From assembly GCA_000503875.1 (NCBI GenBank), contig CP006913.1, positions 900,001 to 932,000 of the forward strand: 32,000 nt of DNA, written 5' to 3'. How positions within the stretch are numbered: the stretch's first letter is position 1; the number at the start of each line of letters is the position of its first letter. The position numbers and the translations under genes were made by a program. Positions 5,530 to 32,000 of this stretch are shown one piece after another. The notes beneath the pieces are model-generated. The model was given only the letters and a program-made list of their open reading frames with translations, was not told where the DNA came from and did no database searches. This DNA is from Candidatus Saccharimonadota bacterium. Lineage in GTDB: Bacteria; Patescibacteriota; Gracilibacteria; Absconditabacterales; Absconditicoccaceae.

Positions 5530-5530
5530 A

Positions 5531-8955: not shown

Positions 8956-8987
8956 ATTTACATAGTAAAAAATTAAAACGCAATCAT

Positions 8988-9214: not shown

Positions 9215-9361
9215 ATGATAATAGATATTATTACTTCTGATCCTGGAGCACTCTGCGGATTCTTATTCGTAGTAACGATTATCGTTATTTCTGTTGTAGA
9301 TCCTCAATTCAAAAGCAGGACAATCAAAAAACGAAGAGAAAAATCTCAACAAGCCACATAA
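9215..9361 (+). CDS. Possible 48-aa single-TM peptide
   Basis: ATG 9215 to TAA 9359-9361: MIIDIITSDPGALCGFLFVVTIIVISVVDPQFKSRTIKKRREKSQQAT. A hydrophobic core is followed by a basic tail, and a terminator-like hairpin overlaps the stop. It is short, so this call is speculative. Confidence 0.3.
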   Translation: MIIDIITSDPGALCGFLFVVTIIVISVVDPQFKSRTIKKRREKSQQAT

Positions 9362-9376
9362 GTGACTTGTTTTTTT
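9350..9376 (+). terminator. Intrinsic terminator-like hairpin with a T7 tract
   Basis: caagccac (9350-9357) pairs with gtgacttg (9362-9369) at 7 of 8 positions around a 4-nt loop. ttttttt follows at 9370-9376. Confidence 0.45.
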
Positions 9377-9460
9377 AATAAATAATTGCTATTTTCCTTG
9401 ATTTTCCTCCGAAAAACAACACAATTCTTTAAGAGAAATTTTTAGTAATTCAACTGATTC

Positions 9461-11560
9461 ATGAACCTCAATCCAAACTATAGATACATTGGTCTCGACT
9501 TCGAAACTACTTGATTAGATTTTTCCAAGGACGAACCAATTCAAATCGGAATAGTCGAAATAGATCATACAGGGAAAATTATCAAAGAATTTTCTTCCCT
9601 ACTCAAACCCACAAAAGATCTAAGTGAACTCAAAACAATAGTCTGATTTATCACAGGAATATCTATCGATGATATAGCAAACGCTCCAACTCCACAAGAT
9701 ATCTTACCACAAATTCAATGATTTTTCACAGATAACACTATTCTTATAGGTCACAACATCAGGTTTGACCTAGAATTTCTTCATAAATTTTTTCCCGAAC
9801 TAAGCTATGCAAACAACATAGACACCTACCCGCTGGCACAAGGAATGATTCACTATCAGTCCAGTTACGCCCTAGAGGTTCTTGTGCCAGGAGAAAATGC
9901 TCACAACGCACTTCAAGATACCAAAAACGCACTTACGCTTTTTCAAAAGATCATCGAAAAAATAGAAAATCTCCAAACGAAATACCCTATCGTTTCGCAT
10001 TTCACCTCACAAGAAATATTTTCTCTCGCTGCATATTTACCAGCAAAAGGCCCAACATTAAACAACGACATCAAAGACATTCCCAGGCTCAACAAAATTA
10101 TGGGTGCAAATACCCAATCACAGGCTAACGAATCTACAATTGATCTCTGACAACTCGAAAATCAAAAAAGATATTATCTAGGAAACACCAATCTCAAAAC
10201 TTTTTTGGAACGTGTTGCTCCCAACAAAAATATTATCTTAGCTTTCTCCAATCTCCAAAAACTCAATATTGCAAAATCAATGCTCAATGCTATGGGTATC
10301 AAAAATCTCGGATTTCTCAAAGATGACCAGATGATTGATTATCAGAAATTTGAAAGTTTTCTCAACAAAACAACATTCACCAATGAAGAAATTTTATTTA
10401 TCTGTAAATATTATTCTCATCTAGAACAAGGATTGGGACTCCTCGATCTCAACACCAAGAGCGATTATCAGATTTATCATTTTCTCAAAAACAAAAAAGA
10501 GAAAACAAGATATCCAATCGTTCTCGCTACCCACCAATGATTATTTAGCTATATTCAAGAAACAACCAACGAATATCAAGATTACGATATCTTATTTTTC
10601 GATGCAGAACGACGATATAAAAGTTATAATTTGTTTCTTTCTCGTCCACAAGATATGTATTATACGCTAAACTTTATAGAAACGCTCCTCTACAAACAAT
10701 TTTTAGAACAAGAGACAAACGCCAAAACCACAAAATCAAATAATCAAAAAATAGCTGCATTTTATACTTCTTTCCAAATTTTTATCGGTCAACTTTTTAT
10801 GGAAAGCAAGCAACTTTTCACAGGAAATAATGCAGAAAGAATACAAAGCAACCCCATTTCCACAGATTCAACTTTTTACAAAACAAATCTTATTTGGAAA
10901 CAGATCATAGATGCGTTGCCAACATTGGAAGACGAAGTCGATCCAAGTGATTTTGAAACAATAAAAAAACAATTTGATCACATTGAGACACTCTTCAATA
11001 CCGTAATTACTATCGAGAAAAAAATGATGAACGATGATATGTATTTCGTCTATAGTGAACATACCCAATATACATCATGGTCAGAATTTATTGAAATTTT
11101 TCCATCAACTATTTACTTTTTTTCCAATAGCGATAAAGCCGCAACCAATTTATTTCCCAACGAACAACCAAAAATTAATATCAAAACAAACAAAATCTGA
11201 CTTTATGACAAAATCGTTTGATATATTACCAACAACAGCCAAACACCACAAGACTACAAACAACAATCTTTTTTTATAGCATCCACAAGGAAAGAAGAAT
11301 CAAAACAATTATTTGAATCTCTCTACAAAAGTAATCTGCATAATCACTATACCATAGTCGCCGAAAACATTACCTGATGAGCCGGAAAAAACATTTTTAA
11401 GTTAAAAAACTCGGCTCCAAAGATTATTATCGGATGATATGCGTTCTTACTCGCTATATATGCAGAGTGTATTTCTCTTGATGAAATCATCGTTTTCAAT
11501 ATAAGAGGAAACAATGAGCAATCGATTTTAGATGACATCCAACGGTATGCCAATAGTTAA
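9461..11560 (+). CDS. DnaQ-family (DEDDh) 3'-5' exonuclease domain with a long DinG-like but apparently degenerate C-terminal region (~699 aa)
   Basis: Frame 2 is open from ATG 9461 to TAA 11558-11560, with junctions checked. Motifs: Exo I IGLDFETT-G(TGA 9512-9514)-LD, Exo II LIGHNIRFDLEFL, Exo III AHNALQDT. I saw no GKT/GKS Walker A in the ~520-aa extension. The C-terminus (KIIIGGYAFLL...IIVFNIRG) recalls DinG-type helicases. Confidence 0.8.
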
Positions 11561-11567
11561 AATCTTG

Positions 11568-12425
11568 ATGAGCGACATTATCAAATTTTTTCTAGCAACA
11601 ATAATTCTTTTGCTAGGATTTTTATGGAAAGGTGAAAAGGTATGAGAAATACAAGAAATACTCTTTTTTCAAGATTATTTAAGCCAAGAAAGTATCGAAG
11701 AACAAATAGAAGAACAAAAAATACATCCTAGTGCACCAGATATTCAAGATACATGTTCTTCTCAAGATCAACTCTGTAAAAAAATAAAAACACTTGAAAC
11801 ACAGGAGATGATTCCTTATAAAAATCAAGTTCATATCGCAACATATTTTATAAACGACAATCAAATTATTGAAAAAAAAATTGTAAATACTATCAAAGAA
11901 ATTGAAATCAAAAATAATGAAGAAGGAAAAAGGGGGTCTGCAACACGAGATACAATAGAACTCAACGTATGACTAACCAATTGACTCAAGGAATTTCAAA
12001 ATCTTTCGACGCATGAATTATGACATATTTTTGATTTAGGGGTAATTCAAGGAAAACAATCGACAAAAAGCAAAGTATTTACTGAAGGGAAAAGAGTCGT
12101 TTTTGCAACAGATGACCCATCATTCTTCTTTTATAAACTATCACGAACATCAGAATCTATTAGAAAGAAAGACGTAAGCAAAAAAGATTTTTGTAGCTGA
12201 TATGGTATGACAGATCCATTTGAAGACTTTTCAGAATGTTTTAACTTATATATCAATAATCAAAATTTTTTCAAATTTATTGCCAAAAAAAACAAGATTC
12301 TCGCGAAAAAATATAATTTTATAGCTACTCTTCTTCAATGACAATATAAAGAAAAAAATACTGAAGCTATATTATTACTAAAAGGAAATACCGCTCGAAG
12401 ACCACGAGATACAACAAAACTATAA
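11568..12425 (+). CDS. Putative membrane-anchored HExxH zinc metallopeptidase-like protein (~285 aa)
   Basis: ATG 11568 to TAA 12423-12425. N-terminal TM helix (IIKFFLATIILLLGFLW) and motif STHELGHIFDLG. It starts 7 nt after the previous gene. Confidence 0.65.
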
Positions 12426-12450
12426 AACATAATTTACATTCAACAAAATA

Positions 12451-13836
12451 ATGCTCAAAAGAAAATTTATCATTAGTACACTAATAATAATACGATGAAT
12501 ATCTCCATTCATTTCTTTTTGAGCAAACGAACAACCAACTTCTTGTGCAGCATGCTGAAGTTCTCCAACTAATTTGAGTTTAATAAATAGTTTTACAACA
12601 GAAATATTAGCAAATATCAAAACTATTTGAGATAAAGATCCATATGCGGGGAAGCATGTTCCACCAAGTCGATATGATTCAGGTAAGTTTGTGGCTCCCA
12701 AACAAAGCATTGTTTCAAAAACGCTTAGACGAGCAAGAGAATCTTTGGGAAGTGTTTTAGCAGTCAAAAGAATCCATTTAGAATTGAGTGATCTAGCAAA
12801 CGTTGGTGATTCACTTGGTGTGTTAGCAAAGAATCATGTTGTTCTAAGGGATCGACAAAAAATGAGTAAAATTGAACAAGATATAAACAGAAAAAAATAC
12901 GAATTATCCGTTGGTTGATGACGAACAGATACCATAGCATGAGTTACTCTTGAAAAAATGCAATCAGTCATCAAAAGATACGAAGAATTATGAATATTAG
13001 ATACTTCAACAATAATAGATGATTGAGCAGAGTATGGAGATTTGATACTTTTATTGTGAAGACTCAATAGTTCTGTAAAACATTTGGTAGCTCTCGGAGG
13101 AGAAGCATGGGCGAAATCAGAGAAAGACGTATTCCTAGACCTCCGAACCAGTTGAGAAGTTGCGATAAAACTAAAGAAAAAGGCGGTAGAAGATATTAAA
13201 GCAGATTATGATTGTACAAAACGATATGCTTGTGAACAGTCTTGGACAAACATAAAAGATGAGATGAAAAAAATAAAAGATGCTTTCAAAGACGGTTTAG
13301 GAAATACTAAAGAACAAATAGCAATTGCCAATCAAAATCTCAAAAAAGCGTATTCTCAAGAAAATCTCAAAAAGACATTTATAACAGAAAATACTCTTGT
13401 AAATCAACTTTCATGAACATTAAAAAATCTAAAAAAACGAAGAGATAAAGCTGTAGAAATGGATAAAGAATACAATGAACGAGAAGATGGTGTATTAGAA
13501 AATCTTGCAAAAAAAGACACAACAATCAAAGATTGAGAAAAAGAAATAGCCAATTCTTTTGCAACAACCAATGATAAACAAAAAATTAAAGATAATTTCA
13601 AAAAAAGAATTCAAGAGACGCAAAAGACTATACAAGATGAAACCAATTCTATGATTGGTAGATACGAAACAAACGATATTTCAGATATTATGGCATATTT
13701 TGTAGCAATTTCTCAAAGGACTAATGGAATAATCAATAAAACAATAGGAAGCAAAGATGAAGGGCTTATCAGTAATTTAGGTGCTCTTTGTGAAAAACAA
13801 TGTAGTAACATCGGAAATAAATCTTGTTATTATTAA
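12451..13836 (+). CDS. Secreted hypothetical protein (~461 aa), partly charged and coiled-coil-like, with a Cys-containing C-terminus
   Basis: Frame 1 is open from ATG 12451 (TAA upstream at 12430-12432) to TAA 13834-13836, checked line by line. The N-terminus is signal-like (MLKRKFIISTLIII..ISPFISFGA). There are many in-frame TGA and nine CGA codons. Confidence 0.7.
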
Positions 13837-13850
13837 TCTTACTATACCAT

Positions 13851-15032
13851 ATGAAAAAAAGAAATGCGCATCAACTAGCAATCAAGTTTATATGAAGCAT
13901 CATCATAATATGTTTATTTTTTTGATGATGGAATTTCGCAGAAATAATAAATACAGAAACCCTTATTTGATGAATTGATGCTATAGAAAAAGCAAGTACA
14001 GATAGAGAAAAATTTGATGAGATGATACTTCATTTTTGTTGAGCAATAACCAAATGAAATGAAGATATTTATGACAGTCACCAATCATTATTTGTATATT
14101 ACATTTGCAAAAATCAACCAAACCCAAATAAAGTAGAAACATACAAATTAGATCCAACTTTCGATCAAAATAAATGATTCTCGGAAAACGCCAAAACATC
14201 ATATACAAGATTTATAGAAGATGATGAAGGAAATAAAATAAATGAATTAGATATAAATCTGCCATCTATGTATTACAATACCGAGGATTATATTCAGACT
14301 TTATTTGATATTATAATAGGAAGTTATACGAGTATATATCAAGCAAACGTTTATGGATATATCAACAATCCAGATAAAACAATAGAGGAAAATATTCACG
14401 ATAACTTTGCAAATAAATATTTTAAAATAGATCCAGAAGAAAATACATATATAAAATTTTGTGCTACTGATGATGAAAAATACAAATACCCAAAAACTTG
14501 TAAAAAACTCAAGGAATATTTTTATGGAGCGTGAAATCTCATAAATTCCAATGAAGAAAATTATTTAAACGATAAAAATATATACAAAACATACGAAACC
14601 AATAAAGAAAGCTGTACAGAGAAAAACAGCAAAAATAATATTATTCCTTGTTGATTATATGGATGAGAAACAAAATATTTTACAAAACTCGTATACAATG
14701 AACTAATGTTTTATGCGCTTTTTGTAGATTATTATTCTTATCTTTTGCAAAATAAATCTGATTTTAAAAATTGGGATGTTATCGAATTTCAAAAAAAACT
14801 CGCAAACAATCAAAACAGAATCCAAGATATGATAAATAATATAGAAACATCTAGAGAAGCAATCCAAACAACAATCAAAATGTTAAAAGAAATTCAATAT
14901 ACATTTCCTATTCATATTGGATTCTTAATGTATAGCGAAGATATCTACAAATTCACAACTAGCATGAATAAAACATTAACTCCAATATACACTTTACACG
15001 ACATCTTGAGAAATGTTCAAAAGACAGACTAG
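13851..15032 (+). CDS. Secreted or membrane-anchored hypothetical protein (~393 aa)
   Basis: Frame 0 is open from ATG 13851 to TAG 15030-15032, checked. N-terminal hydrophobic segment (IKFIGSIIIICLFFGGW). Track pieces 14268..14534 and 14706..15032 share the frame. Confidence 0.7.
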
Positions 15033-17034
15033 AAGAATCAAACAAATTATTATTCTATGAGCTTTATTATGACTGATACTAAGCCTATTTTTTCTCAAAA
15101 AAGAAGTATTTGGTGCTACAATAAACAGTGTATTACAAGGGTTAATCAATACCATAGAAGGTAATGAACCAACAGAAAAATTATTTGAATGAGATGCTAT
15201 GGTAGAAAATATTTACAAAAAAGCTATTAATGGTAAAAAAAGAAAAACAGCAAATATAACAAACATTGGAATAGAAAAAATACAATTTATAAATAGTTGA
15301 GTAACTATAGAAAAAGAAGATCTCTTAAATATCTTATATAATAGCAATAACAATGTAAATGTAGGTATACGTTTTCTATGTAAAACTTGTAAAATTTCTC
15401 CCAGTGATATAAATAAAAGCTATGAAAAAGTAATTTTAGAATTAGAAAAAACACAGGCTATAACAACAAAAAATGACAATGTTCTAACAAGAGCAAAAGT
15501 TGATGAACGAATAAATAGTCAATTTATTATTGCTTCTAATGGGGAAACAGCTTTGACAAAATTCAATGAAGCAACCGTTGGGGAAGATTTATTTATAAAT
15601 GGTGTTGAAGACGATAGTGATTATGATTTACAAATAGACATTGAAAATATAGGAAATCTTTTGTTTGAATCTTTTATAGCTCCTATTGAAACAGTGTTTT
15701 ATAAATTACCACCAAACAAATCCGGCTCTTCATCAAACAATAATGTAAATACTAGCACCGATAAACAAGATCTAATAAATATATTACAAAACACACTCAC
15801 CTCACCATCTATAAATACATGAGTAATAACAAATTGATGATGACAAATTACTAACACGTCAAAAACAACGAATACCAAGAATACCCCAACAACAAATACA
15901 CCAAAAACAACGAATCAAGATATGTCTGATACAGAAATAGCCGATACAACATTACAAAAATTTGTAGATAAAAATACACTAACACAAAAAGCAACAACAC
16001 AATTAGCTGGTATAGAGTGAGATATTTGTAGAGAATGAGTAAGTGCAGGACCAATAACACCAACAGAGGAACAAGAAGAAAACATAAATGCTGAAGACCT
16101 TGATACGTATCTGTCTACTATTCAATGACAAATAGAAACATATGACAATATATATCCAGAAAATCAATACATACCAAATATAACAAACAATCCAGCTTTT
16201 AATGATATGACACCTAGCCAGACAAATCAATTTATTGAGCAATATATAGAAGATCTATTCAAAGTAGAATCAACTGAATCTTGTATAAAGAATTGTAGTA
16301 GTTTACCCTTATCTGAAAGAACTGTTTGTCAAATACAATGTCTATGCTTCACTATGAGCTGGCCAAAAGATCCAGATATAAGAGTCAAAAGTATGAATGA
16401 AATGCTCAAGCTAAGATTTTGTATGGTTCCTGCAAAAAGTATGGCAATACCAAAATGAAAAAATATTTATAGTCTCGATGATATTTTGACAAGAATAGAA
16501 ACAAATATGGGTGATTTGGTTAATTGATGAGATATGGTAAAATTTCAAAAAACCAAAGAATTTTTAGACAATCCTATTGCAGAATTTAGCTTTTCAAAAT
16601 TAATATCATTTCAAATTAATCTCAATATGAAACCGATTTTCAACAACAAATCCGCTATAGCAAAAAAAGATCAAAAAGAAACTTCTATCCAAAAATTAGA
16701 AAAAATAAGTTGAAAAGAACAAACAGTAGGTATTGATACAAATAAATATCTTGTCGTTCAAGATAATGAAAAAAACAAAGTATACAAAAAATATGCTTGA
16801 TCAGTAGAAGAATATCAAAACAATTATGAACAAGCAAAATTAATAAGAGATATGACTTGACGACAAAATGTGTCTATAGATACAAGAAAAATACCTATAG
16901 TAGAAGAAGAAAAAAGTAAGATGTTAACAATTATAGTGGATTTTTTAGAACAAAATCTCACCTTTCGAGAACAGACAGAAAAAGAACTTCAAAATCTAAA
17001 TAATATTGTATTTTCTCTTCAAAGTAAGCTTTAG
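15013..17034 (+). CDS. Secreted hypothetical protein (~673 aa) with a Thr/Asn/Lys-rich linker and a Cys-rich segment
   Basis: Frame 1 is open from ATG 15013 to TAG 17032-17034, checked. Signal-like N-terminus (MFKRQTRRIKQIIILGALLGLILSLFF). It overlaps the upstream gene by 20 nt. Linker TNTSKTTNTKNTPTTNTPKTTNQ; Cys cluster CIKNCSS...CQIQCLC. Confidence 0.7.
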
Positions 17035-17492
17035 GTCAAAAATGCTGCAGTAATAGCTTTCATAATTGCGTATGAAAAAGTAATAACAATAACACCTATA
17101 ATAGCATTTTTTATTGCTGTATTTCATTTTGATGTAGCTCAAGAATCAGCATTAAATATACTAGTAGCGTAAAGATATCCCGCATAAACGATAAAACAGG
17201 CTCCAACAAAAATTCCTATTTCAGACAAAAATTTAATAAGGTATGCTAAATAATCCAATAAAGTATCCCAAGTAAAAATACCCGAAGCCATCTGAGCCGC
17301 TAAATTTCAATCTTCTTGATATTCAGTAGCTTGTCTATTATATTCATCCCAGACATGTCATCATACTCAAACCTCATTTACATCTTTTTCTACGGTATCA
17401 CCAGGCTTAAGTTCTGGTATAATTTCTAAATTTTGAGCAAACAACGATCAATAAAAACCCAAGGAAATAATAAGTATCACAAGGTATTTCAT
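17031..17492 (-). CDS. TrbC/VirB2-like (T4SS-pilin-like) small two-TM protein (~153 aa)
   Basis: The minus frame is open from ATG (17492-17490) to TAA (17033-17031), checked. After a signal peptide (MKYLVILIISLGFYGSLFA) come two hydrophobic helices separated by a short polar loop (FLSEIGIFVGACFIVYAGYLYATS..SGATSKGNTAIKNAIIGVIVITFSYAIMKAI). This is the layout I associate with the pilin-like family common in CPR genomes. Confidence 0.65.
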
Positions 17493-17514
17493 GAGAAATA
17501 TATAAAAAATAAAG

Positions 17515-18357
17515 TTATTTTGTACAGGTATCTGATAGTGGTGCTTGTTTAACTAATGTATTGAAAAGACTGGAAATAGCAACAAACTTATCAAATAGTT
17601 TCATCAATCTATCTTGCACAAATTGTTTAGTATAAGATGTTAAACCATCAACTAACAACGTTGCTGCATTATATTGAGATATCATTATAGCCAAAGATGT
17701 TTCTTGTCTTATTCTTGCCTTAACCATAGACAAACATCTACCATAATATCAATCATTTACTATATCTATATTACGAAGATTTAATCATTGATAATACATC
17801 ATCATCGACATAAAACAATAATTAATATATTTATCGTGAAGATTAAATCACTTACTTTCATTTATTATATTACGAAGAGTAGTCGCGTAATTACTTGATT
17901 CATAACGAGAAAAAAGATAGGTTCAAGATAACATCCAATATTTTAAATAATATTTCTGAAAAATTTTGGGCGTTTTAATCTGTTCAGTATTTTTTACAAA
18001 TTCTCTCCATATTTTTCATTGAGGATCTGGTTCCATATTAGGATACATAGATTCTGCATCTAATTTTCTGAGTCCAACATCTATCAAATGATCATACCAA
18101 TAAGGACTTTCTGCTCCAAAAACAAGATTATCACATTTTCAAATCAAAGCAGAAAGATCCGCTCTATTTGTACAACAATAAGATCTTAAGTGATCGCGAG
18201 CAATTTCTAAATCATTTGCTGGCAAAAAGTTTTCAAATAATGACCAAGAAGCAACTACAGAAATAGATTCACAATCGTCTTTTGCAAAACTAAACGCAGA
18301 AAAAAAAACAACAAAGATCAAACAAAATCAGAATATTTTTTTGGTTAAATTAGTCAT
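17515..18357 (-). CDS. Secreted Cys-containing hypothetical protein (~280 aa)
   Basis: The minus frame is open from ATG (18357-18355) to TAA (17517-17515), with all triplets checked. Signal peptide (FGFCLIFVVFFSAFSFA). Track pieces 17515..17733 and 18139..18321 share the frame. Confidence 0.7.
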
Positions 18358-18410: not shown

Positions 18411-21400
18411 TTATTTCATAAGACGAGTTTTTGTCGTAATTCTTACAATATCTTTTTCCAAGAAATCTTTGATAACATAAATAACCGAACGAGTTGTTGT
18501 ATCATAACGATACTCACCTACAAGTGATGTTGATGCTAATTTTGGAATATAAATCTGACCTATAGGAGAAATATACAAGATACATTCCTTATCTAAAGAT
18601 TGGATACAACTTCATCCAAAGAACGATCCAAAACTTGGTTGCGTAATATCTATCTTGGTATAAAAAGGTTCTTTCTGATATAAGGTAACATCATTCAATG
18701 CAAATGCTGGCATTTGAATCCAAAACACTGTCGTTGATGTTTTTTTATTTAACACACGAACCAATGGATATCAAGTAATTAAATCGAGCATCACTGTATA
18801 GGTATCTTGATATGCAGGAAGAATTGTTATATTTCCATCAATTGAAATCTGACCTATTTCATTTCAACGATCATCATAAAGTCCTACTGTATTTCACATA
18901 CTAAAAACAGATCACGTAACAATAGTTTGTTTTGGTCAGACAGAAAATCATCAATAGCTGTTAGCCAAAGTACCTGACATTTCTTGCCAAAGATCATTTC
19001 TTTGTCTTTGAAAGATAACCATTCATTCATCTATATCATGAGATAATTCAGCAACAAGTTTGCCAGAAAATTCCGATACAGGGACAAATTCTTGTAATGC
19101 AATATTTGGTATTTGTATATCCAAAGTAGCTTTTTCTAATTGTCTATTTCCATTAAAATCTTCTGCTCCTATAAGATATTCCAAAGAATTTACACCAGTA
19201 AAATATAATCAAGTAATTTGGATATTTCCTGTTTGATTGGTTCCTGTCGAAAAAGAGATTAATTTACCATCTTTTTCAATCCACATATTAGATACAGCAA
19301 CATTATCTTTCCAATCAACAACAAGATTATAATATGTTCATACAAATCATTTATGACGTGATCAAGTACTTACTACCTCAGAAATAGATGGTCTTTGAAG
19401 CGTTATAACTGCTTCTGGTCAGACCATATCAGCAATAATTTGTCTTCCTGCAACTATTTGATTAGACCAAGGTCATTGAGGAATATAATAAGGATTTTCC
19501 AATGTATTGGTATTTTTGAGTGGTACAATTTCTGCATATTGCCAATTTCTTGGAATCTCATTTAGTCCAATCGATATTGTTGGTTGAGTTGGTTGATAAA
19601 ATTTTATTCCATAAATCAATTCTGAATACGTTCATCCAGAAAGGAAATCCAGAACATCCCTTGCTTTGCCAGCATCTTTACCTTTATAATAATATCTTTC
19701 TTTAAAATCTATTGTTGCTCAAGAATAATTTGTTTGATTAGGTAAGATCAAAATATATCTCTTATTCAAAAACTCGTCATCCAAGAAACGGAAATTACTA
19801 TCTTTATCTTGATAGGTATCTATCCTGTGATTTAATTTAATGAGATACCCATCTGCAGGTTCTCATAAAACAGTATGATTTGTCCAAGACATCTGAATAG
19901 CATCAAATGATTGTCCAACCATTTTAAAATTTTTCACTTCTTGAACAGGAGAAATCAGTTTTACAGAGATATCTCAAAAATCAACATATCACTCATCATC
20001 AGCTTTTTTAACCAAATCCTCATAAGAATCAGCAAAAGAAGATGAAAAAATACCCGGTGAATAAGTATATAATGATGTTGTTGTATCAGAATTTTTATGT
20101 TGAGATTCTTGTTTAGCATACTTAACATAAATAGTATTTGTGTCCCACATAATTAAATCTTGTCCAAGATCTTGGTTAATATCTGCTGAAAAATAACGAT
20201 CACGTATTTTTGTTACATATGGTTGAGATCTTACCACATTGATCATAGTTCATGATTGTGGATTTTCGACAAAGACTCAACGAACATAAGAAGAAATGTC
20301 AGATGAAAAATTAGTTGTCGGAGAAGTTGTTGGTGATGATGATGTTTGACTAAGTAATGGTTGATCCGAAGATGTCTCATTGCTAGCTATATAAGGAATT
20401 CAACAAGAAGCATAACTTATTTTATCAAATCATAATTTATCATATACATCATCAATAGTTGATTTCATTCCTTCTAAATATTCTGTTGTTTGCTCATAGT
20501 CAGACTTTGTCATACGAAGCTCATCAGGAGAAGATGTCGAAAGCGTTTCAAGATATCAATTAACCAACGTTGCATTGGTATCCATATATGCTTTAAAAGG
20601 AGATTCTTGTTGTTCGATAAGATCGTAGGTCTCTTTGTTCGTTGTAAACAACGGTGAGGCAAATGAAATTTCAATACGATCATCGTCAACCAAAGCAATA
20701 TCGTTACGTTTTAGTTGCGCTACAAAACGATCGTATGAGGAAACTGTTTTAGTTAATTCGCTAATTTCTTTTTGTTTTTTGATTAAAATAGTCTGAATTT
20801 CTTTTTGTATTGATTGAAGTTCTTTTGTAGCTGGAATAACAACAGCTGGTTTTTGTAAAACAGAGTTGATCTTTCAAATATCTTTTTGAATATCTGGATC
20901 ATCAACACGCATAGCAAATTCTTTAAGTCAGGCAGAAAGTTGTTTATATGCTACATCATATTCCAATGTTGGTGTTTCAGAAATCAATCAATCAAGCGGA
21001 ATATCAAGCGGTGGAACAGTAAAGTCTAAATTAACGTCTTGTATATCTTTGTTCAGAAAATCCATAACTTTATTGTTCTTTAATCCAGAAGTAGCTTGGT
21101 TAACTGCTTTGGAATATGAATTAGAAACATTATATGAAAAAGAATTAGCTGTCTCTGCAATTTGATTTAAGAATCCATAAAATCATGAGAAATCCATTTT
21201 AAATTGCAAAAAGCCATCAAGTTGTAAATCAAATCATTGAGGTTTTGGATCAGTTTTCCAAGTAAATGTTTGATTGAAAAAATCGAAAATAGGTACATCC
21301 CACGTTCTTTGTGTCATTTGTTCAACCTTTGCCTTTACTCACTCTTCTCCCACAAGACCAAATCCTTTTTTCAAAATACAAAATATTTTTACTACAAAGT

Positions 21401-24400
21401 CTGCTATCTCTATAATCGAAGATATCTCTGGAATAATATTTGGAATTTTTGGTGCTGGTGGAAGTAACGGTAATGAAAAATCTATCTTCGGAATAAAAGA
21501 TGGTAACTCTGGAAGAGTTGGTGGTTCAGGCAACAAAGGAATTTCTGGCAAATCATAATTAAATTGAATAGAAAAATCAAATCACGCTGCCAAGTTAAAG
21601 TCAGGAGGTGTAGGTAAATTAGGCAATTGTGGTAATGGAAAATCTACTGGTGTAAAAACAAATCTTGGTAATGCTATACTAATACCCATATCAACATGAG
21701 AAAGATCTATGTTAATGTTTGGAATTTTAAAAGCTGGTATAGGTATGATTGGAATTTGAGGAAACAAAAATCCGAGACTACAACCATGAGATCCATAACC
21801 ATCACGTGAACATTTTCCACATTTTTTTGTCCAGTTTACTGATAGATCTATAATTACTTGCCAAGTTTTTATAGCTGACAAAATAAGGACTAATGCATCA
21901 ATTCGCTTAGCATAAATTTTCGCATTTACATTTACCCATCAAATCAATGTAGATGATAATGTAGAAACAAAATTCATAATATCCGCCATATACCTATCAA
22001 CAAAGTGCATCCAATCATACAATTGCAATGGAAATTGTTTATATTTTTCCAAAATTTGAATATTCTGTTGTACATTTTTTACCAAAGAAGTAGCCTGATT
22101 ATAAAAAGAAGTAAATCAATCAATGTCTGCTGAAAATGTTGCGCATGTAGAAAGACTACTAACTCTATCCTGAATATGTAACAATAATTCTCTATCTTCA
22201 GCTGTTGGGTTTGGTTTTGCACGTAACCAAACTTCTGTTGTTTTTAATCTTGGAAGAGAAATTAATTTTTGTGAGAAAAATTGAAACTGTCTACCTATAT
22301 CAGTAAATACAGCAGGAATATCATCTATAATAATATTTCCTGTTTGAGTAACAATATCTCAATTAATAACTTTTTGAAGAAATATTTTTTCTTTTCATGC
22401 CGAATCAATGAGTTTCTTAAGTGTTGTTGATTGCTTATTCATTTTGTTAATTTCAATTATTTCTTCTTCTAAGAGAACAAGATCTCTCTTTGCTTGAGCA
22501 GGTGTTATACCTCCACAAATAGAAGCCAATTCATGAATAGCCTCGAGCCATTGTTTAAGTATTTTTTGTTGATTTTTAAGCCATCATCTAAGATAACTAT
22601 CATATTTCAAAAGATCATCAGTTGTTGGTAATGGAATTTTGAAAACAATATCTTTCGTATATAAATCCACCAAAGGAACTGATTGAAACATAGTGATAAG
22701 AGATTCAAATGGATTGTTTACTGAAGATGTCATTGCGTTAAAATTTTGTTTTGATCAAATAGCCTTAAGATTATCTAAAGTACTTTGATCCTTAGAAACA
22801 TTTGCATAATTAGCATCATCTTCTTGTGATTTTTCACTTGCGTCTGACCAATCTGCTGCAGAAAACAATGAATCAAATCCATCTGCTAATTGAGAAACAT
22901 CTGGTAAGGTAACATTTATAGTAAGTTTAGTCAGATTATTAATCATATATTTAACTTGTCTACCCAACCAATCTTTGACTAAGGATTTAATAATTCCTTT
23001 TGCATTACTATCCTTAATTTTGAGATCTATCTTTGGTCATTTAACAAAACTCAATGCATCAAAACCAAAACCACTTTCCATTCATCAATAAGAGGTTGTA
23101 CTACGTTTTTTTGTTGGTTTTGAATTAAATGAAATATATCCGAATCAGCCAAAATTTCAATTTGGAACTGCCATTGTCCAAGAAGAATTTTGAGATCCTA
23201 ATGAAGAAAGTCTAAAAGCTGATGGATAAGTAGGTTGTTGAATAATCAATGTATTTGATACTACTTTTGCCGATGATTGTTGAAGTGGTTGTTCACAAGA
23301 ACCATTATTTGCTAAATCAGACATCCAAGGTTCTAATTCTTCTGTAACTGGTTCATCACCAGATCATGATCATCCTCCATTACAAGCATATAAAGGAAAT
23401 GCTACGACAACACAATTTCCTCACAAATCCCTAAAAAGAGGTGGGATAGCTTTTCAAAGAGTTGTTGGTCCAAAACAAATAGCAACTCCCATTTGAAGTG
23501 TTAATGTAGGCACAAGGTAAAGTCTTACCCAAGATGAATAAGATCATACTTGAGGTCATCCAATAAAAAAGTCATCGCTACCAGCCATTCTCACAGGAAA
23601 CCCAAAAATATCTGGCAAAGGAAGGTATCCAGCTGGCGTTGGTCATCGATTACCAGGCACACTGAGAACAGGAAGTCCTTTTCCTAATGTACTACTAATT
23701 GGTTTTAAAAGATTTTGAAAACATCCAAAAATATGATATTCTCATGCCCCCAAAAACGCTTGATTGAATGGTATTTTATTAAAAGGAACTGGTGGTTGAC
23801 AACCGGCTTTTGCTCACAATTTAAATCACTGACAAAGACCATCAAGAATTTTATCTATGTCTTCTGAAACAGGTGCCATCAAAGTATCCAAAGCTTTCAT
23901 ATCAAAAGAAAGATTTGCCTGTCACTGAGAAAACAAATCGGTAACTGTCCATGATTCAAAAAGACCATCCATATCAATTTGATCAAGTATATCATTAACA
24001 CCATCTTGATAATTCGATGCTGATGATCAAGAAGCAAAAGAGTCTGAAGATGTAGTTGGCATTGATCATGCCAAAAGAGCATCTCATTCAGCTTGTCACT
24101 TAGCAGTATATACATCTAATTTCGCTTGAATATTATCATATACTTCATCATAGTTTCTATGACTTTGCGAAGAATTATTAAAAAATACTCGTCTATATTT
24201 TTTACAACTATCTGCCGGGAAAACAATAATATCAGAATATGTATCTTTTTTCTTGTTTGCATCAGAAAACAATACATCCTTAACTTCTATAGAAACCGTT
24301 GGCTCTCAAAGATAAACAACATCATAAGAAAAACGTAAAGACTGACGAAAATCTAAATTAATATCATCTAATACAAAAAGAGCTTCATCGGAATCCAGCC

Positions 24401-27400
24401 ATGTAATATTTTCCTCGGTAAAATTGCCCAATTCTTTTTTGAAAGAAAGTATTTTGTCTGCATCATCAGACAAAATTTCCCAAGGTCAAATCAAGCGGTC
24501 TATATATGTCGCCTCAATATTATTTTTTAGTCAGAGAATTGTTGTCGTTATTTTAACAACATCTCAACTCAATAAAACACCACCATTATTATCTTTGTAT
24601 TGCTTATATACACTAAGAGATGCATCACCAGAAAGTTGAAGAAGCGTTTTGTATCATATATCATCCAAAGAAGAATTTTCTTCATAACTAGGGATATAAG
24701 AAATAGGAGCAACTGTTAATTGGTTTGAAAGACTATCAGCAGCAAGATTTTGAAAAGAATTTGCCATTCATCAAACAAAACTTCACAAATCAAGATCCCC
24801 CATTTCTGGATTCATAGAACCTGTATCGGTAACCAGGTCATTTACTTGATCCGAAGATATTGGTGTCTGAGCATCGATACTCCAGCCTTTAACATGAACC
24901 ATACTTTCATCTTGAATATAGAAATCTGGTTCTATAACTACGCCATAACTCTTCACCAAACGGACGCTTTCTTTTTGTCTAGCATGCCAATCATCATCAC
25001 AAGCATATTGCAAAGTAGACACATAATGTCATTGTCCATTTTTAGATCAACCATAAAATATTTTAATATCTCATATAACATCATTGGTAACAATATCTAT
25101 ATTTCCATCTTTATCCATATCCTCAAAAAACAATTGCTGTAATCATGCAACAGATTCTGGATTTTTTTGGATTTTTGTTCCATCAGCATTTATATTTAAA
25201 CATATCATATTCCCATCAACATCGAGAACTCATTTATCATTTTTATAGACTCTCAATTGTTGATTATTTGTCCATACCAATATATCTGGATAATTATTTC
25301 AATCAACATCTCCTACAAAAATATCTTTAATACTATCAGACAAACGCATCAAGTCTTGCATGTTTGTATAAGGATGCGTTCCTCAATAATTTTTTAATAA
25401 TTTGATAGTTCCATCACTAAACACAGTTATAATATCTGTAAGCCCATCATTATTAATATCAGTATTCAAAACTTTAAAAATAGCCTTTGATGTATTAGTA
25501 TATACTTGTTCACCTATTCATAAATCAAGATCAACAGATTTTATTTCGACATTTTCAGATATTCTAGACAATAGTGGATCTCAAAAATTTATAAGAAATT
25601 GTGAGCCAAAAGGGATTGTTGATTCTCAAACCGTTTTTCCATCACCAAATAAAGTAATGTTTTTAAAATCAGATCTAAATCCAATTCCTTCTGCATAACT
25701 TGTACTATCTTCTATAGAAAGATATCCTTCTTTTTCAAACGTCCCCAAAAGATCAATAATTCAGATTCCTTTTTCTCAATTCGTTGTTCATTCCGCAAAG
25801 GTTATTGTTTTATCATATGCAATACTAGAATAGACAACAACTTCAGATAAATCTAATGATTTATTTGCTGCTTGAATAAAATACAATTTTCAAAGCTCCT
25901 CTTCTTGATAAATAACATTCCAAATACTATATCCTTGATCCATTTTTTCTGACAACTCAATAGACAATCATGAATTCCAAATATCTTTTTTGAAATTAAA
26001 TAATACTTCTCCACTAAATGATAAACTATTATCAGTAAGTTCAAAATTTAATTCTTGTAAAGAAGTGTTTTTAGAAAATACCAAAGAAGCCGAATCTTTT
26101 TTAGACAATTCTTTTGCTGTCTGAAATGGATCTTCAGATGAAAAAAGTGTAAGCGGTTTTGCCTGAGTAAGTGGAATATATCAAATTCCATCAAATTCTG
26201 CAACCAAAGATCATGAAAGAATTTGTAAGGTAACTTCACGTTCAGAAAAATTACGAACTTGACCATGCTCAGAAACAACAGCTGCAAATTTTTTGATACG
26301 TGATGGCTCTACAATTTGGGTAGTAACTGACAAAAGTTTTTCAGAAGAAGAAACTAAATCAGGTACATATGAAGGATCCAAAGCATCTTGTGTCCAAAGA
26401 TTTCATCGATCAGAACCAAAAAGATTAAGATACATAACATTAAGTTTTTTTTCAGGGAGAAATTTTTCTTGAATAACTATTTTTTGATAAGCGGGTGATT
26501 GTTGTTCTAAAGCAAGATCATTTATAGATGCATAAACATATCAAATTCCACCTTTTTCTTTTGTTTTTAAAGAGAAATTATATTGCTCATCACTTACTTG
26601 AACAATTTTTGAAGGAAAATCTAATGCTCAGGTAAATCCCAAAACCAAAGATGTTGGTGTTGAAATAGTATTGCCCCATGCGTCGGTAACAGACAACGAT
26701 CCGCTCAAAGATTCTCAAATAGAAAGAGATGCTGCTGATGTAGTAAGATTAACATGATATGGTTTTCATGAAGTAACAGTAACGGGTATAATTATCGGAT
26801 CTAAACCAGGAATTTGTATCCAGATTTCATCAGTTCCTGCACGATAACTTGGCATAAGAAAGATAGCTTGCTCTGCTTTTTCCAGAAAGAAAGATCCCAA
26901 AGAAACAAAATTTCCCGAAGAGACAACTCAAGGAGTAACCAATCAATTTTTACTAAAAATAGTAAATGGTGTTTGTAATTGAGAGCCATCTTGAGCGCGC
27001 AAAGAAACAATAATTCTCGGTATTGTAGAATAGGTAGAGTCAATTTCTGTAAGAGTAAATTCTAATTTTGATTGTGCTTTATTGTTGGTATAAAGTTTTT
27101 TTGATCAAAAAGATACTTGAAAATCCCCTGGGGTAACAGTAATCGTTTTTTTGGCACCAGCATCTGCTCACGTAAGAGAAAATGTTACTGTGGTCGGTTT
27201 ATTAACAATTGGTGCCTGGTAAACAAGCATAGTATTATCAAAATCAGAAAACTCCATACTCTGTGGTCAAGGAAGTCCTCCTCATATAAATTCTCAGTTT
27301 CCTGTAGCAACATAAACGACATAAGAATCCATAACTCTTGAAACAGAATTACCAGAAAAATCTTTAGCAGATATTGCTATAGGTAATTGCGATCATGCAA

Positions 27401-30400
27401 GAAGTTTTGTTGTTGGAATTTCCAAAGAAAATGTTTTGATTTTTGGTAATAATGAAGTATCATCTCAATCAATAAGAACAATATTTGATCGATATTCTGA
27501 AATATTTCCAGAAAAATCAGCTCATGGAGATTTTTCAGAATTTGTTATCTTACTAAAAGAATTTTTCCAATCATCAAAACTACCCTTCAATCACGATAAG
27601 AATTCTCCAAATGATGGTCCAACTTCCATAGATACATCAAATTTTACTGAAGAACCCAAGGTACTCCACCAACATTGTAATGCAGTAATCCAAGGCATTT
27701 TTCATTTACCTTCTTTTTCTTTTAGATCAAAAATAAGCTCTGTATAACTAGAATCTATTCAACATTGACGTCTTGTCGCAGAAAAAAGATCATTTGATGC
27801 CAAAACAGAATCCTCAATAAAAGTATTGGCAACTGTTTTTTTGTTATCTTGTAATTTTTGGATAAATTTAGGTATTTCTGCAGCAGAAATATAATCAGAT
27901 CTATCAGAATTAATATAAGCGACTTCATATCATGAGGCATTATACGCTGGTGTAATCAGAGATCATTGATCTGGATGTTGAGTAAGATATCCTGAAACAA
28001 TATATGATATTTTTTTGTTTAAATCAAATGCTGTTCTAGTGGCATTCAAATCTTTATCTACATACGTTTCTTTTTGTTTTGTATAGACAGGCAATGTTTG
28101 ATAGTATAATAATTCAGCCAAATCATAAATACGCTGTTTACCAATCAATGACACAAAGAAATCTTCTGGCAAGTAAACAGTAGAACGAGTATTTGGAGAC
28201 GCAAGTGAATCTGAAGTAGCAAGAAAATTAAACGCCGCTGGATTTTTATTGTAATGTTGTTGACGAGTTTTTTCTTGAGCCAAAAGAAGCGTATTATATT
28301 CTTTCGTTTTTGATAAAAGATAATCGAGCATCGATTGATTGATTTCTTCTATAGTCTTAAGGGTAAGAATAGATCATTCTTGTTTATATACCGGTATATC
28401 ATACACATTTGGATATACAAATGTCACCAAGCTTCATCACAATCATTGGAATGTTATACTTCTTGGTCAATCTATTGGCCTATCTGCAGTTGTTTGATTA
28501 AGTCATGGTGTTTTTGTTAGTGGTGGTACTTTATCAACTGTTTTAATTGAATTAATTCCAGACAAAACAAGCGGAATATCAGAAAGAAAGCCTGTTTCTG
28601 TGGCTGCATCTTCAAATGAAGCTTCAAATCATGAAAGAATTTTTATTTCTATAGGCGTAGGTGTTCAATCAATATCCTCAGTAACTGTTGTTGTTCTAAG
28701 TGTATAAAGTGTTTGAGATAAATTATTCAATGATCAGGTAAGTGCATCTATGTAATCACAAACCTGTTTATAAAGATTTGCACATCAACAATAATTAGCA
28801 GTTACGGTTCAACAATTTTGAAGATCATTTATATTTTTTCTCTTTGTTGCCAACAATCATGTAGCAAAAGCATTTGTTGTTGTAATAGATGTATACACTC
28901 AGTTAATCTGAGCAAAAGAATTTGGTAATGAATTATATTGATTTCTTATAATAATAACCTTTTTTTTCAAATCATTACTCCAACCAGAAAGAAATTGTGT
29001 TTTTTGATTGTAGAGCGATTCTATTTCTTGTATTCTATCAAAATAAGACAAAACTAATCAAAAACTCAATGCTGGTAACAAATCAGAACTTTGTTCCAAT
29101 GAAGAAAAAACTCAAGAAAAAGTCTCAATATATTCTTGGTGTCCTGTTTGAGAAAGAATATTTTTAGCTCAAGACAACAAAACAAGAGGATCAGAAGATG
29201 TTAGAGAGACAAAAGAATTAATACCAGAATTAATTTCTTTATTACCAGAAAGCAAAGACAACAAACCAGAATAAGATTGAGAAAAAGAAAGTTTAGAATC
29301 CTCTTGAAGGGATAATAATTCAGTGTTTAAATAATCATAATGTTTCCAAAACAATCCTTGTTCAGAAAATTCATTTTGATAGGTCCCATTAATTTGATCA
29401 GGCGTTGGAGCTGTGTTTTTTACTCTAGAATCTATTGTTTTGTAGGTATAATCAAAGATTTCTCTTTTCCCATCACATTTTCATCACATAGAATCTGAAG
29501 ATTTTCGTTCTTGATTTATTCAATTTACATCAATAGTTTTCCATTTTTTACTTCACTTATCATCGGATTTATTCCAAATAGAAAAATAATCAAGCTCCTC
29601 ATATGATTTACGAATTTTTTTTGTACCAATAAGTTCTCTATATCAATCCTGTTCAGAAGAGTAAATATCCAATGGGTATACTTCAGCATCTTTATCTCAT
29701 TTTAAATATTTAGGATAATCCAATACTCAATAACGATCTTTGACTTTGATAACCGAAGGAAATGATTTTGCACCCAAAAATGAATATGCTGCAGTTTTTC
29801 CTGTAGCAACAGCAGAAGATCAACCTATATTATAAATAGGAAACATTGCTGATAAATAATCATATTGTTGAAGTTTATATACCGGAGGATTTGCAGACAA
29901 TGCACCAGAATCTAGATTAAGACTCGATGCTCATCATCGACCTCTAAGAGAAAAATCTTCTACAGTTTCATCTTTTTCTCAAACACTTTTTGTCTTTTTT
30001 GTCATACAAAAAATATCTATTCGCAAAATCCTAAAATATCTACTACAGCTTATTTGTTTTTTTTGTTTAACTTTATTTTCATTATAGGTGTCATAATCAC
30101 CGGCAGCCGCCATAATATTATATCCTCTATTTGCCTCTACTTGTGTAGCAAAAAGACTATTACTAGCTCCTAATGTTTTTCCATTAGAAGAACCATATCC
30201 TGTATTCAAAAGAGCAACTCCAGAAAAAGAATCTAAATTTCTAAAAGTTCATCTATACGCACTAAATTCTTGTGCTGAAACTATATCTTGAGCAAATGTA
30301 CCAAAATAATAATTTTTATAGAGATCATTTGTTGTTCTTTCACACCAACGTTTAGGAAATATTCAGATTCGTTTCTTTTTGTTAGTTCGATCTTGATGAA

Positions 30401-31598
30401 GAGATTCTGCTATAACAGGGATCGTCATATACCAATTATTGCTCTCAATCTTTTTATCCAATGCTTCTTCCATAGCATCATTAAATGAAATCATAATAGG
30501 CGATATTCATTTTCATGCATCTCAAAGAGTTAGAGAATCTTTCAATGCTACTTTATGGATATGAGAATCTACTCCATCAACCCGTTCTCCACTTCCTGTC
30601 TTTTTATACCATCTTGCTGCGGCCTGCGTGTTGTCTTTGATTGTTGACAAAAAGACACCAGGATAAAGATTTTCATATCTCGTGATTAATTCTTTTATAA
30701 CAGACAACAACATAGTTGTTGGAACACTTGATTCACCCAGAGCATCAAAAGTACCAGCTCATGATAACATAATTTGGGTTAATTCTGGGTTGTTTTGAGA
30801 GACACTTGCCAATCAATCAATCAAATCAGACATATCATCATTTTGAACTTGTTTGAAATAATCAAGCATCAAATTGGTAAATCTATGATATCATATATCC
30901 TCTGTAAACAAGAAATTATTGATATAGAAAGGGAGTGTATCTTCAGCAAATGTTGTTTTCATTGCAACAAAATCATCATACCATAGAAGTGGTGCGACGA
31001 AATCAGCTGGGGCAGCTGCATATTTTCTTAATTTTTGGAAAAAATCATGATATTTAGAATCTTCTGATCAAAAATTAAGTATTCAATGCCAGATTTCCGC
31101 CTGCCCCCTTGGATTATTGTTATACACAAAAAACTGTTGATTTGCATCATAGACAAATTGTTGCTCTTCAAAATCTACATACGGAAAAATCGTAGGATAG
31201 ATAAATCCATTATTTTGAACAACTGGCAACGGAATATCTCAGATAAAAACAGCTCATAACAAATCAGATGTTTCTCATTTTATACCATCAAAATACATAT
31301 TTTCCAACATTCTCACCACATCAATTGCTTTGAAATTTTGAGTATTAATAGGTAAAACCAATGCTTTAGAATTGGAAATACGTTGTTGAATATAATCAGT
31401 AGCATACCATTCAATATCACTTTTTGCATTTTGATAAATATCTTTATCTACAAAAACAGCCACCAAATGAGTCCTATCCAAGGGGTTTTCTGCAAAAACA
31501 GATCAAAAATCAACAAAAAACCAACTCTGTAAAAAGTAGGACAAAGAATATATAAGCAACAAAAGTCAAATCAAATGCCTTTTATGCAAAAAATACAT
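18411..31598 (-). CDS. Giant secreted/surface protein, ~4,395 aa, as a single ORF under table 25
   Basis: I checked every minus-strand codon in the frame whose plus-strand triplets start at positions divisible by 3, either by hand or via the ten same-frame track ORFs (19989..20246 through 31275..31481). No TAA or TAG occurs between TAG at 31760-31758 and TAA at 18413-18411, and well over 100 in-frame TGA are present. The ATG at 31598 gives a signal peptide (MYFLHKRHLIGLLLLIYSLSYFLQSWFFVDFGSVFA/ENP). An alternative ATG lies at 31649. Confidence 0.85.
21415..21790 (-). other. Proline-rich periodic module within the giant ORF
   Basis: FPQIPIIPIPAFKIPNINID ... FPLPQLPNLPTPPDF ... LPEIPLLPEPPTLPELPSFIPKIDFSLPLLPPAPKIPNIIPEI, with recurring (I/L)P-x-(I/L)P units. 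Confidence 0.55.
25040..25470 (-). other. FG-GAP/VCBS-like calcium-binding repeat block within the giant ORF
   Basis: Four spaced DxDxDG-type motifs in beta-strand context: TDINNDGLTDIITVFSDGTIKL, VGDVDGNNYPDILVWTNNQQLRVY, LDVDGNMICLNINADG, EDMDKDGNIDIVTNDVIGDIKIFYGG. Confidence 0.5.
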
Positions 31599-31851: not shown

Positions 31852-32000
31852 ATGAACGAACCACTTTCATCACTCCTCAGACCACAAACATTAGACGAAT
31901 GTATAGGACAACAACATCTCATTGGAGAAGGTAAACCTATACGTGGTTTTTTGGAACAAAAAAAAATTCCTTCAATGTTATTCCGATGACCTCCAGGCTG
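31852..32000 (+). CDS. rarA: Replication-associated recombination protein A (RarA/MgsA AAA+ ATPase), 3' end cut by the window edge
   Basis: From ATG 31852: MNEPLSSLLRPQTLDECIGQQHLIGEGKPIRGFLEQKKIPSMLF[CGA][TGA]PPG. This matches the RarA N-terminus up to the Walker A lead-in (SMILWGPPG in E. coli). Confidence 0.8.

Follow-up and report, generated by a model that had tools for sequence, protein, structure and literature searches.

A conserved giant gene of an Absconditabacterales (SR1) bacterium encodes a candidate surface contact protein and heads a predicted operon with a pilin-like gene

Absconditabacteria and Gracilibacteria live as obligate epibionts or predators. We analyzed a 32,000-nucleotide stretch of DNA (the window) from candidate division SR1 bacterium RAAC1_SR1_1 that carries one giant gene, positions 18411 to 31598 on the minus strand, for a putatively secreted protein of 4,395 amino acids. 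The genome was published in 2013, and the genome paper drew attention to large proteins of the cell surface, as long as 5,900 amino acids, that contain beta-propellers among other domains (Kantor et al. 2013, PMC3812714). Public databases already contain full-length calls of the gene, made with translation table 4 or 25, for the same DNA and for more than 150 homologue clusters, and NCBI names members of the family "VCBS repeat-containing protein" or "FG-GAP-like repeat-containing protein." Hence, the gene is neither newly found nor invisible to table-25 calling; the initial annotation of this DNA, which held that standard gene calling cannot see it, was right for table 11 and wrong otherwise. 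The gene itself, the giant surface proteins of the group and the general idea of adhesion are known. New here are a conserved operon, a linkage to pili and relatives in organisms with the standard genetic code, modest points that together give a testable system.

Several described systems resemble this locus in part. The giant FG-GAP/VCBS surface proteins (PF13517) are likewise secreted and very large, with an FG-GAP_3 match above threshold and three calcium-binding motifs in the window's protein, and an adhesion role for such proteins has been proposed by authors who work on Gracilibacteria and SR1. However, FG-GAP accounts for ~6% of the giant protein, ~94% has no Pfam, NCBIfam or PDB match, and tandem repeats are absent. 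PilY1/PilC-type adhesins are also large and secreted and have a calcium-binding beta-propeller-type region; the giant gene adjoins pilin genes, and in distant standard-code relatives it lies directly behind genes for PilB, PilC and a prepilin. Unlike PilY1/PilC, the giant protein is ~4 times larger, without detectable sequence similarity to them, and the "pilin" of the window is VirB2-like rather than a type IV prepilin, with no type IV pilus genes near. A third parallel is offered by VirB2/TrbC with VirB5, and by PrgB: a small two-helix protein that looks like a pilin (its family resembles PF18895/PF04956) and has a signal peptide shares the predicted operon with a large surface protein, and Patescibacteria have a type IV secretion system (T4SS) without a known adhesin. 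The giant protein nevertheless shows no similarity to VirB5 or PrgB; it lacks LPXTG, and genes for a T4SS ATPase or channel are absent from the neighborhood. Finally, LapA/SiiE/Bap, the RTX adhesins and the giants of predatory Omnitrophota share its size class, Sec/surface targeting, calcium motifs and proposed role in cell-cell contact. In contrast to these, it has neither internal repeats (self-comparison by BLASTP returned the identity match alone) nor an RTX or type I secretion signal, and its architecture is not modular and variable but constant in order and length throughout a class-level clade.

Read on the plus strand, positions 18411 to 31598 begin with TTA and end with CAT, so the open reading frame (ORF) belongs to the minus strand; a plus-strand reading was ruled out by 117 TAA or TAG codons in that frame. 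On the minus strand, the frame runs from an ATG at 31598 through 4,395 sense codons to a TAA stop, with 145 in-frame TGA codons and no TAA or TAG. This bears out the single ORF with more than 100 TGA codons that had been described. From base composition, the probability of 4,395 codons without TAA or TAG is ~1e-112, and 87 TGA codons would be expected against the 145 seen. The TAA/TAG-free frame extends up to 31757 and offers an alternative ATG at 31649; the start at 31598 agrees with the N termini of homologues.

Could the frame be an artefact, that is, a pseudogene, a misassembly or a chance opening created by ignoring TGA? No support for this was found: table 11 merely splits the frame into pieces of at most 122 amino acids, as had been reported (the longest lies at 27963 to 28331), with antisense shadow ORFs beside them. 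Besides the chance probability given above, identical DNA from an independent assembly speaks against it: a reassembly in the European Nucleotide Archive (locus L001; Rifle sediment run SRR944699) has 0 mismatches over 13,053 bp and the same gene order. The frame also stays open in more than 77 homologous loci. In-frame TGA occurs in every other gene of the window too. Full-length homologues number in the hundreds, with identity down to 26%; some relatives have a giant gene without any TGA; and the total of TGA and GGN codons is roughly constant over 81 homologous loci. We put the probability of an artefact at next to nothing, and the comparative data exclude it. We conclude that we are dealing with a true protein gene of expressed type from an Absconditabacterales (SR1) bacterium. 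Its share of the 1.18-Mb genome is 1.1%, a large investment for a reduced genome, as the initial annotation had pointed out.

By alignment, the code of the window is one in which TGA encodes Gly and CGA encodes Trp, both in housekeeping neighbors and inside the giant gene. Code 25 with CGA/CGG as Trp has been described for Absconditabacteria (Shulgina & Eddy 2021, PMC8629427), and we translated the giant protein with TGA as Gly and CGA/CGG as Trp. In the beta subunit of ribonucleotide reductase, three CGA codons stand at Trp positions (NFW-PE, Y-W-RD/E and EI-W-Q) in the alignments shown for both PDB homologues, and a TGA stands at a Gly position of solved structures; FolD, aligned in the same way, has TGA at the Gly of PVPG-G-IGP. 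Within a 121-sequence alignment of the giant gene, TGA columns resemble GGA/GGT columns (52% Gly in the correctly translated, table-25 homologues), while CGA columns resemble TGG and not AGA columns. CGA codons of the giant gene are aligned with TGG in its closest relatives (L005 to L008). The two reassignments assumed at the outset were thus upheld by housekeeping alignments and giant-gene columns alike.

The protein belongs to a large family. A homologue search returned 158 clusters, of which the 120 listed are 3,000 to 5,900 amino acids long and cover the query end to end at identities reaching down to the 26% mentioned above; their source organisms are Absconditabacteria, SR1, Absconditicoccaceae and Gracilibacteria. 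In a scan of one genome per species, full-length, collinear homologues were present in at least 96 species-level genomes, including human oral SR1 HOT-345 and a complete 1.0-Mb genome. The carriers come from groundwater, lakes and the human mouth. A profile of residues 2550 to 3475 matched 668, 528 and 278 cluster representatives at E ≤ 1e-3, 1e-10 and 1e-30, respectively, and the best 150 matches were all giant proteins or fragments thereof. VAMP_16_20, a "hypothetical" protein of 4,163 amino acids and the longest of the cultured predator Vampirococcus, is a probable member that could not be confirmed. As far as the alignments tell, the superfamily comprises proteins of 4,000 to 6,000 amino acids with a domain order common to all members: an N-terminal alpha/beta domain, an FG-GAP/VCBS calcium-binding propeller region, a Cys-rich region, a helical bundle, a CxxC/proline-rich signature and a beta-rich C terminus. 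This conservation is collinear over the full length and across a class-level clade. Hence, one giant protein stands for a conserved family of single architecture across the whole clade, with relatives in standard-code organisms.

The giant gene also heads what the gene order indicates is a conserved operon, which the initial annotation did not include. Directly downstream on the same strand lie a gene for a secreted protein of 280 amino acids with conserved cysteines (A290; 17515 to 18357) and a gene for a 153-residue protein with a signal peptide and two hydrophobic helices that resembles VirB2 and T4SS pilins (B150; 17031 to 17492; 100% identical to NCBI P148_SR1C00001G0839 of RAAC1_SR1_1, from a contig of 1,177,760 bp). 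The gaps between the three genes are 53 and 22 nucleotides and contain no terminator-like site; scans for promoters and terminators gave results at chance level. The same trio, giant gene, ~290-residue secreted Cys protein and ~150-residue pilin-like protein, follows in the same order in 4 divergent loci. A290 is directly downstream of the giant gene in 61 loci, and hidden Markov models of the partners found the two immediately behind it, in the same orientation, in 56 of the 63 loci with enough downstream sequence. Synteny in related genomes, which had been suggested as a check, thus extends to both small partners. A290 carries the motif DC…AYCC…C…YPxSxYLFDHLxDVxMRRLDG…C and has no Pfam match. 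In an alignment of 30 B150 members, FAQ at the predicted cleavage site is followed by IIPE, the two hydrophobic helices and an invariant FSYAIMK; 13 of the 30 match T4SS_pilin (PF18895; best E value, 2.2e-7) and 3 match TrbC/VirB2 (PF04956).

Linkage to pilin-type genes recurs outside the recoded lineages. Ten remote members of the superfamily are collinear with the query in six blocks (the N-terminal domain, ~1035 to 1085, FG-GAP, ~2650 to 2720, ~2960 to 3015 and 3168 to 3505). Three of the ten have no in-frame TGA and therefore come from standard-code organisms. Metagenome-assembled genomes of standard-code relatives include GCA_013824265.1, GCA_964424075.1 and GCA_964352145.1. In 3 of 4 standard-code loci, namely, 2 of the 3 TGA-free loci and the P0313 locus, for which there is no DNA on record, the giant gene lies directly behind genes for a PilB-like T2SSE protein, a PilC-like T2SSF protein and an N-methyl prepilin, and it is followed by four genes for secreted Cys proteins. 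One of these four (the L083 and L084 counterparts) is homologous to C673, a Cys-rich protein encoded next to B150 in the window (hhalign probability, 94.6%; P, 7e-8). Counterparts of A290 and of two further secreted proteins of the window, D393 and E461, were also sought in these loci by hhalign; none was significant. Taken together, the neighborhoods of both lineages indicate that next to the giant gene there is a small gene of the filament type, along with a C673-type accessory gene. The giant gene thus shows genetic linkage to pilin-type genes as well as to small secreted cysteine proteins, which form a fixed set.

What might such a protein do? We favor, with somewhat more confidence than doubt, a role as a pilus- or filament-associated surface contact protein. 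A surface location is suggested by the signal-peptide-like N terminus, the invariant cysteines and the FG-GAP_3 match, together with SLH, TSP3_bac, Big_1 and Invasin_D3 matches in relatives, and attachment to host or prey is plausible. We infer the following steps. The giant protein would be exported, and the small partners would hold it at the cell surface; the pilin-like two-helix protein may act as a membrane anchor or filament subunit, and the Cys proteins may act as disulfide-linked adaptors. The calcium-dependent propeller and beta-rich domains would then be presented for contact with host or prey cells, the giant protein taking the part that PilY1 or VirB5 plays for pili. "VCBS repeat" proteins of Gracilibacteria have been detected by metaproteomics (PMC11452946), which is consistent with expression, though their membership in the same family could not be confirmed.

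Several observations weigh against a pilus-linked contact role. For a host-specific adhesin, such strict conservation from end to end across habitats would be unusual; a structural role fits it equally well. The protein has no recognizable wall or membrane anchor of its own: LPXTG is lacking, and the hydrophobic peaks at residues 3241 and 3400 are marginal and charged. On the side of the pilin, the window's own B150 falls below the Pfam cutoff (20.9 versus 26.6 bits) and has no PDB match. VirB4, VirB6 and other T4SS genes are absent within 10 kb in L001 to L004, and no type IV pilus genes stand beside the giant gene in the window or in those four loci. Finally, AlphaFold2 models of two segments of the homologue P0003 (equivalent to residues 38 to 640 and 2550 to 3475), built from shallow alignments of 11 to 12 sequences, were both poor (predicted local distance difference test [pLDDT], 40.5 and 46.3), and the domain map is one of sequence only.

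Perhaps, then, the protein is not a host-recognition adhesin at all but a housekeeping part of the envelope, S-layer-like, wall-spanning or serving as glue between stacked daughter cells? Such a scaffold would account equally well for the full-length collinear conservation in every lineage and any habitat. It would also fit the single conserved gene per locus and the lack of any hypervariable or repeat-expansion region; the conserved proline-rich stretch might reach across the cell wall, and standard-code relatives have S-layer homology (SLH) matches. However, the window's protein has no SLH match, the linkage to a pilin-type gene in both lineages points to an appendage, and the poorly conserved blocks (residues 640 to 1000 and 3040 to 3160) could carry specificity. 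We consider a scaffold rather unlikely.

The operon also raises a more specific idea, that the T4SS of Patescibacteria has in the giant protein its missing surface adhesin or tip factor, seated on a VirB2-like pilus made of B150. A recent survey of Patescibacteria T4SS found VirB2-like pilins to be widespread, no PrgB-type adhesin, and T4SS genes scattered in Gracilibacteria (PMC12102498). The conserved operon and the matches of the B150 family to T4SS_pilin and TrbC would find a place in this scheme. The lack of any other T4SS gene within 10 kb in the four code-25 loci argues against it, as do the subthreshold pilin assignment of the window's B150 and the distant relatives, in which the neighbors of the giant gene are type IV pilus and not T4SS genes. 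This T4SS-specific role is less supported, and we regard it as quite improbable.

A broader version of the pilus-linked contact role would unite both lineages in one contact organelle, made of the giant protein, its two operon partners and C673-type accessories, with the giant protein capping or decorating a filament. The filament would be a VirB2-like pilin in the UGA-recoded lineages (SR1 and Gracilibacteria) and a type IV pilin in the standard-code relatives. We hold this lineage-wide organelle to be unlikely as it stands; if it were true, it would be the long-sought interface for host or prey attachment and feeding, with a pilin partner that was swapped during evolution. What had been "some big adhesin" becomes a defined candidate system of five or six genes that could be tested in the few cultivable relatives.

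The anatomy of the protein was drawn from conservation and composition, and all features below are on the minus strand. The putative Sec signal peptide (residues 1 to 36; 31491 to 31598), as judged by reading, has a basic KRH, a hydrophobic LIGLLLLIYSLSYFL and then SVFA before the predicted cleavage at E; the AE behind the hydrophobic stretch is kept in homologues. This sequence fits the Sec type and agrees with the signal peptide that had been claimed.

The most conserved N-terminal part is a predicted alpha/beta domain (residues 40 to 240; 30879 to 31481) that is tentatively gingipain (Peptidase_C25)-like. Like gingipain (Peptidase C25, clan CD), it has a beta-alpha-beta start and an invariant His-Gly; the invariant His lies in AEIWHG (residues 170 to 172, with the His of WHG at residue 171), WYDDF follows at residue 206, and the domain also has invariant Asp and Glu residues. 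The AlphaFold2 model gives beta-alpha-beta-alpha-beta for the first ~90 residues only, at a pLDDT of 60 to 79. Might the giant protein be a secreted enzyme or toxin-like effector, with a gingipain-like peptidase at its N terminus or with its Cys-rich hydrophobic domain entering the prey membrane as a feeding route? Pieces of 2 of 8 relatives gave weak Peptidase_C25 matches at residues ~60 to 190, the best with 22.7 bits against a cutoff of 23, and a conserved, hydrophobic Gly-/Pro-rich domain does exist at residues 2560 to 2760. Against this, the Peptidase_C25 similarity is below threshold, with no match in the window's protein, in any of 10 distant relatives or to the gingipain structures in the PDB, which leaves it a weak lead. 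No conserved Cys that could be the C25 nucleophile occurs in residues 40 to 470 (~35 residues past the His, the sequence reads WYDDF), and no toxin family was matched. An enzyme or toxin is less supported as well, and we think it highly unlikely.

A conserved region (residues 241 to 740) follows, and then a variable spacer (residues 745 to 1000; 28599 to 29366) that is poorly conserved and possibly helical or coiled-coil-like, with nonsignificant coiled-coil-type PDB matches only. The next conserved block (residues 1001 to 1300; 27699 to 28598) carries the motif TxDRPID…ITFQG. A beta-rich region (residues 1375 to 1720; 26439 to 27476) had been called Ig-like. We could not verify Ig-like beta-sandwich segments in the giant protein: a Pfam search of 5 family members gave no such match, and weak Big_1 and Invasin_D3 matches occurred in the distant relatives P0356 and P0313 only.

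FG-GAP/VCBS-like calcium-binding repeats, also part of the original description, were confirmed at residues 1960 to 2240 (24879 to 25721). The FG-GAP_3 (PF13517) match at residues 2047 to 2108 (25275 to 25460) has an E value of 3.6e-7 and scores 31.1 bits against a cutoff of 26.9. It is the sole Pfam family above threshold in the giant protein, and two stretches of the propeller region passed Pfam. Three DxDxDG-type motifs (DINNDGLTD at residue 2047, DVDGNNYPD at 2097 and DMDKDGNID at 2160) fall in columns that are invariant or nearly so in the family. Beyond FG-GAP, searches of Pfam, NCBIfam and the PDB with the whole protein, a 24-sequence family profile and sets of segments found nothing, in line with the earlier view that most of the length matches no named family. 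The family profile likewise found no sequence match to the PilY1 propeller in the PDB. By eye, the beta-rich region at residues 2290 to 2500 (24099 to 24731) is possibly DUF11/TIGR01451-like. The Joint Genome Institute (JGI) labels distant relatives "TIGR01451 family," and one of these has a weak CLIPPER/DUF11 match; the Pfam search gave no DUF11/TIGR01451 match in the giant protein.

The conserved Cys-, Gly- and Pro-rich hydrophobic domain (residues 2560 to 2760; 23319 to 23921) has invariant cysteines and the motifs LPVPFNQAFLAPGxYHxFGC, RLYxxPTLT and GGNCVV; AlphaFold2 gave it a pLDDT of <50. A long alpha-helical bundle at about residues 2990 to 3255 (21834 to 22631) is the sole region modeled with moderate confidence (pLDDT, 70 to 87). 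Foldseek comparison of the model of residues 2550 to 3475 with the PDB returned generic helical or coiled-coil matches only (best E value, 0.06). The best-conserved block of the protein, which even the most distant relatives have in common with it, is the superfamily signature module (residues 3168 to 3505; 21084 to 22097). It consists of a helix, a CxxC…C cluster (residues 3260 to 3275), a proline-rich stretch with invariant prolines (residues 3276 to 3392) and GLVGEE-VKAKVEQMTQRT ("GLVGEExVKAKVEQMTQRT"). Transmembrane segments were considered at residues ~3241 and ~3400 and rejected: besides the marginal hydrophobicity and charges noted above, AlphaFold2 puts the first within a long helix.

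Behind a helical region (residues 3480 to 3740) comes the Ser/Thr-rich linker SSSPTTSPTTNFSSD (residues 3742 to 3770; 20289 to 20375), which lies in a gappy, poorly conserved block of columns. The beta-rich C-terminal region (residues 3771 to 4395; 18414 to 20288) is conserved and has neither LPXTG nor a transmembrane segment; a search for LPx[TSA]G found none anywhere in the protein, and the C terminus is polar. Of the adhesin-like character seen by the initial annotation, the secretion signal, the FG-GAP repeats, the Ser/Thr linker (placed there at 20290 to 20375), the proline-rich module and the several Cys-bearing regions were all found again. The missing tandem repeats and LPXTG and the collinearity over a class-level clade do not fit a typical adhesin.

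Downstream of the operon, on the plus strand, lies a convergent cluster. C673 (15013 to 17034), a secreted or anchored Cys-rich protein of 673 amino acids, adjoins B150 in 23 loci. E461 (12451 to 13836) and D393 (13851 to 15032) belong to its cluster; both are predicted to be secreted, neither was recognized as a member of a family, and homologues stand in the same order in L004. The stop codons of B150 and C673 overlap by 4 nucleotides (17031 to 17034), with no terminator-like structure between them. In L077 (9904 to 10933), two tandem B150-type genes stand behind A290, which recalls the pilin arrays of other Patescibacteria.

The standard-code loci L083 (2863 to 26698), L084 (640 to 24272) and JGI P0313 have a common layout: two unknown genes, PilB, PilC, prepilin, the giant gene, four secreted Cys proteins, HTH_17 and UvrA. 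Their giant proteins are 5,011 to 6,066 amino acids long and have SLH and TSP3_bac matches, which are absent from the window's protein. In the window itself, two adjoining proteins of ~495 amino acids each (2549 to 5529, plus strand) have one central or N-proximal hydrophobic segment apiece and no Pfam match. A similar pair lies upstream of PilB in L083; the two pairs share no significant similarity.

Public records of the family carry translation errors. Of the 120 listed homologues, 108 (P0001, P0002 and most of P0004 to P0120) seem to be table-4 translations, in which TGA is Trp (Trp content, 2 to 5.5%), and table-25 entries still read CGA as Arg. P0001 is only 96% identical to the window's protein despite the same DNA because of the translation code used in the database. 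Most database copies are thus mistranslated, table 4 putting Trp at ~3% of positions, which are Gly sites, and CGA being read as Arg, and this makes for poorer alignments and structure predictions. Many metagenome-assembled genomes titled "uncultured Candidatus Peribacteria bacterium" (L006 to L008, L014 to L019, L068 and others) carry the giant gene with dozens to hundreds of in-frame TGA codons. These organisms must be UGA recoded, and the label looks like a taxonomy-mapping artefact.

Codon usage differs between the giant gene and its surroundings. In the 16 neighbor genes (41 to 18357), Trp is encoded by 41 CGA and 26 TGG codons; the reassigned CGA is the majority Trp codon, at a share that exceeds any Absconditabacteria figure in PMC8629427. 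The giant gene has 10 CGA and 48 TGG codons (Fisher test against the neighbor genes, P = 6e-7). CGT and AGA stand at 34:52 in the giant gene versus 10:98 elsewhere in the window (P = 7e-7). A reassignment of CGT was suspected since the CGT columns of the giant gene are not Arg-like; it was rejected, as CGT/CGC occur at canonical Arg positions in Fmt, dCMP deaminase and FolD. CGT-encoded Arg in the giant gene is mostly at variable sites, where relatives show K, N or S. Between close relatives (18411 to 31598 versus L005 to L011), CGT and AGA do not interchange; with CGA as Trp, the two Arg codon families are left without a synonymous single-step path.

Three other genes of the window deserve mention. 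At 978 to 2171 (plus strand), a 397-residue ORF fuses a domain of the membrane-insertion factor YidD (residues 14 to 85; E value, 1.8e-15) to a complete methionyl-tRNA formyltransferase (Formyl_trans_N and C). A 699-residue protein encoded at 9461 to 11560 (plus strand) has an N-terminal RNase_T/DnaQ-type exonuclease (E value, 1.4e-20) and a C-terminal extension of ~540 residues without a family match. The first part of a gene for a RarA/MgsA-type AAA ATPase, which runs divergently from the giant gene, occupies 31852 to 32000 (plus strand), and its Walker A motif LFWGPPG is spelled TTA TTC CGA TGA CCT CCA GGC, with both reassigned codons adjacent.

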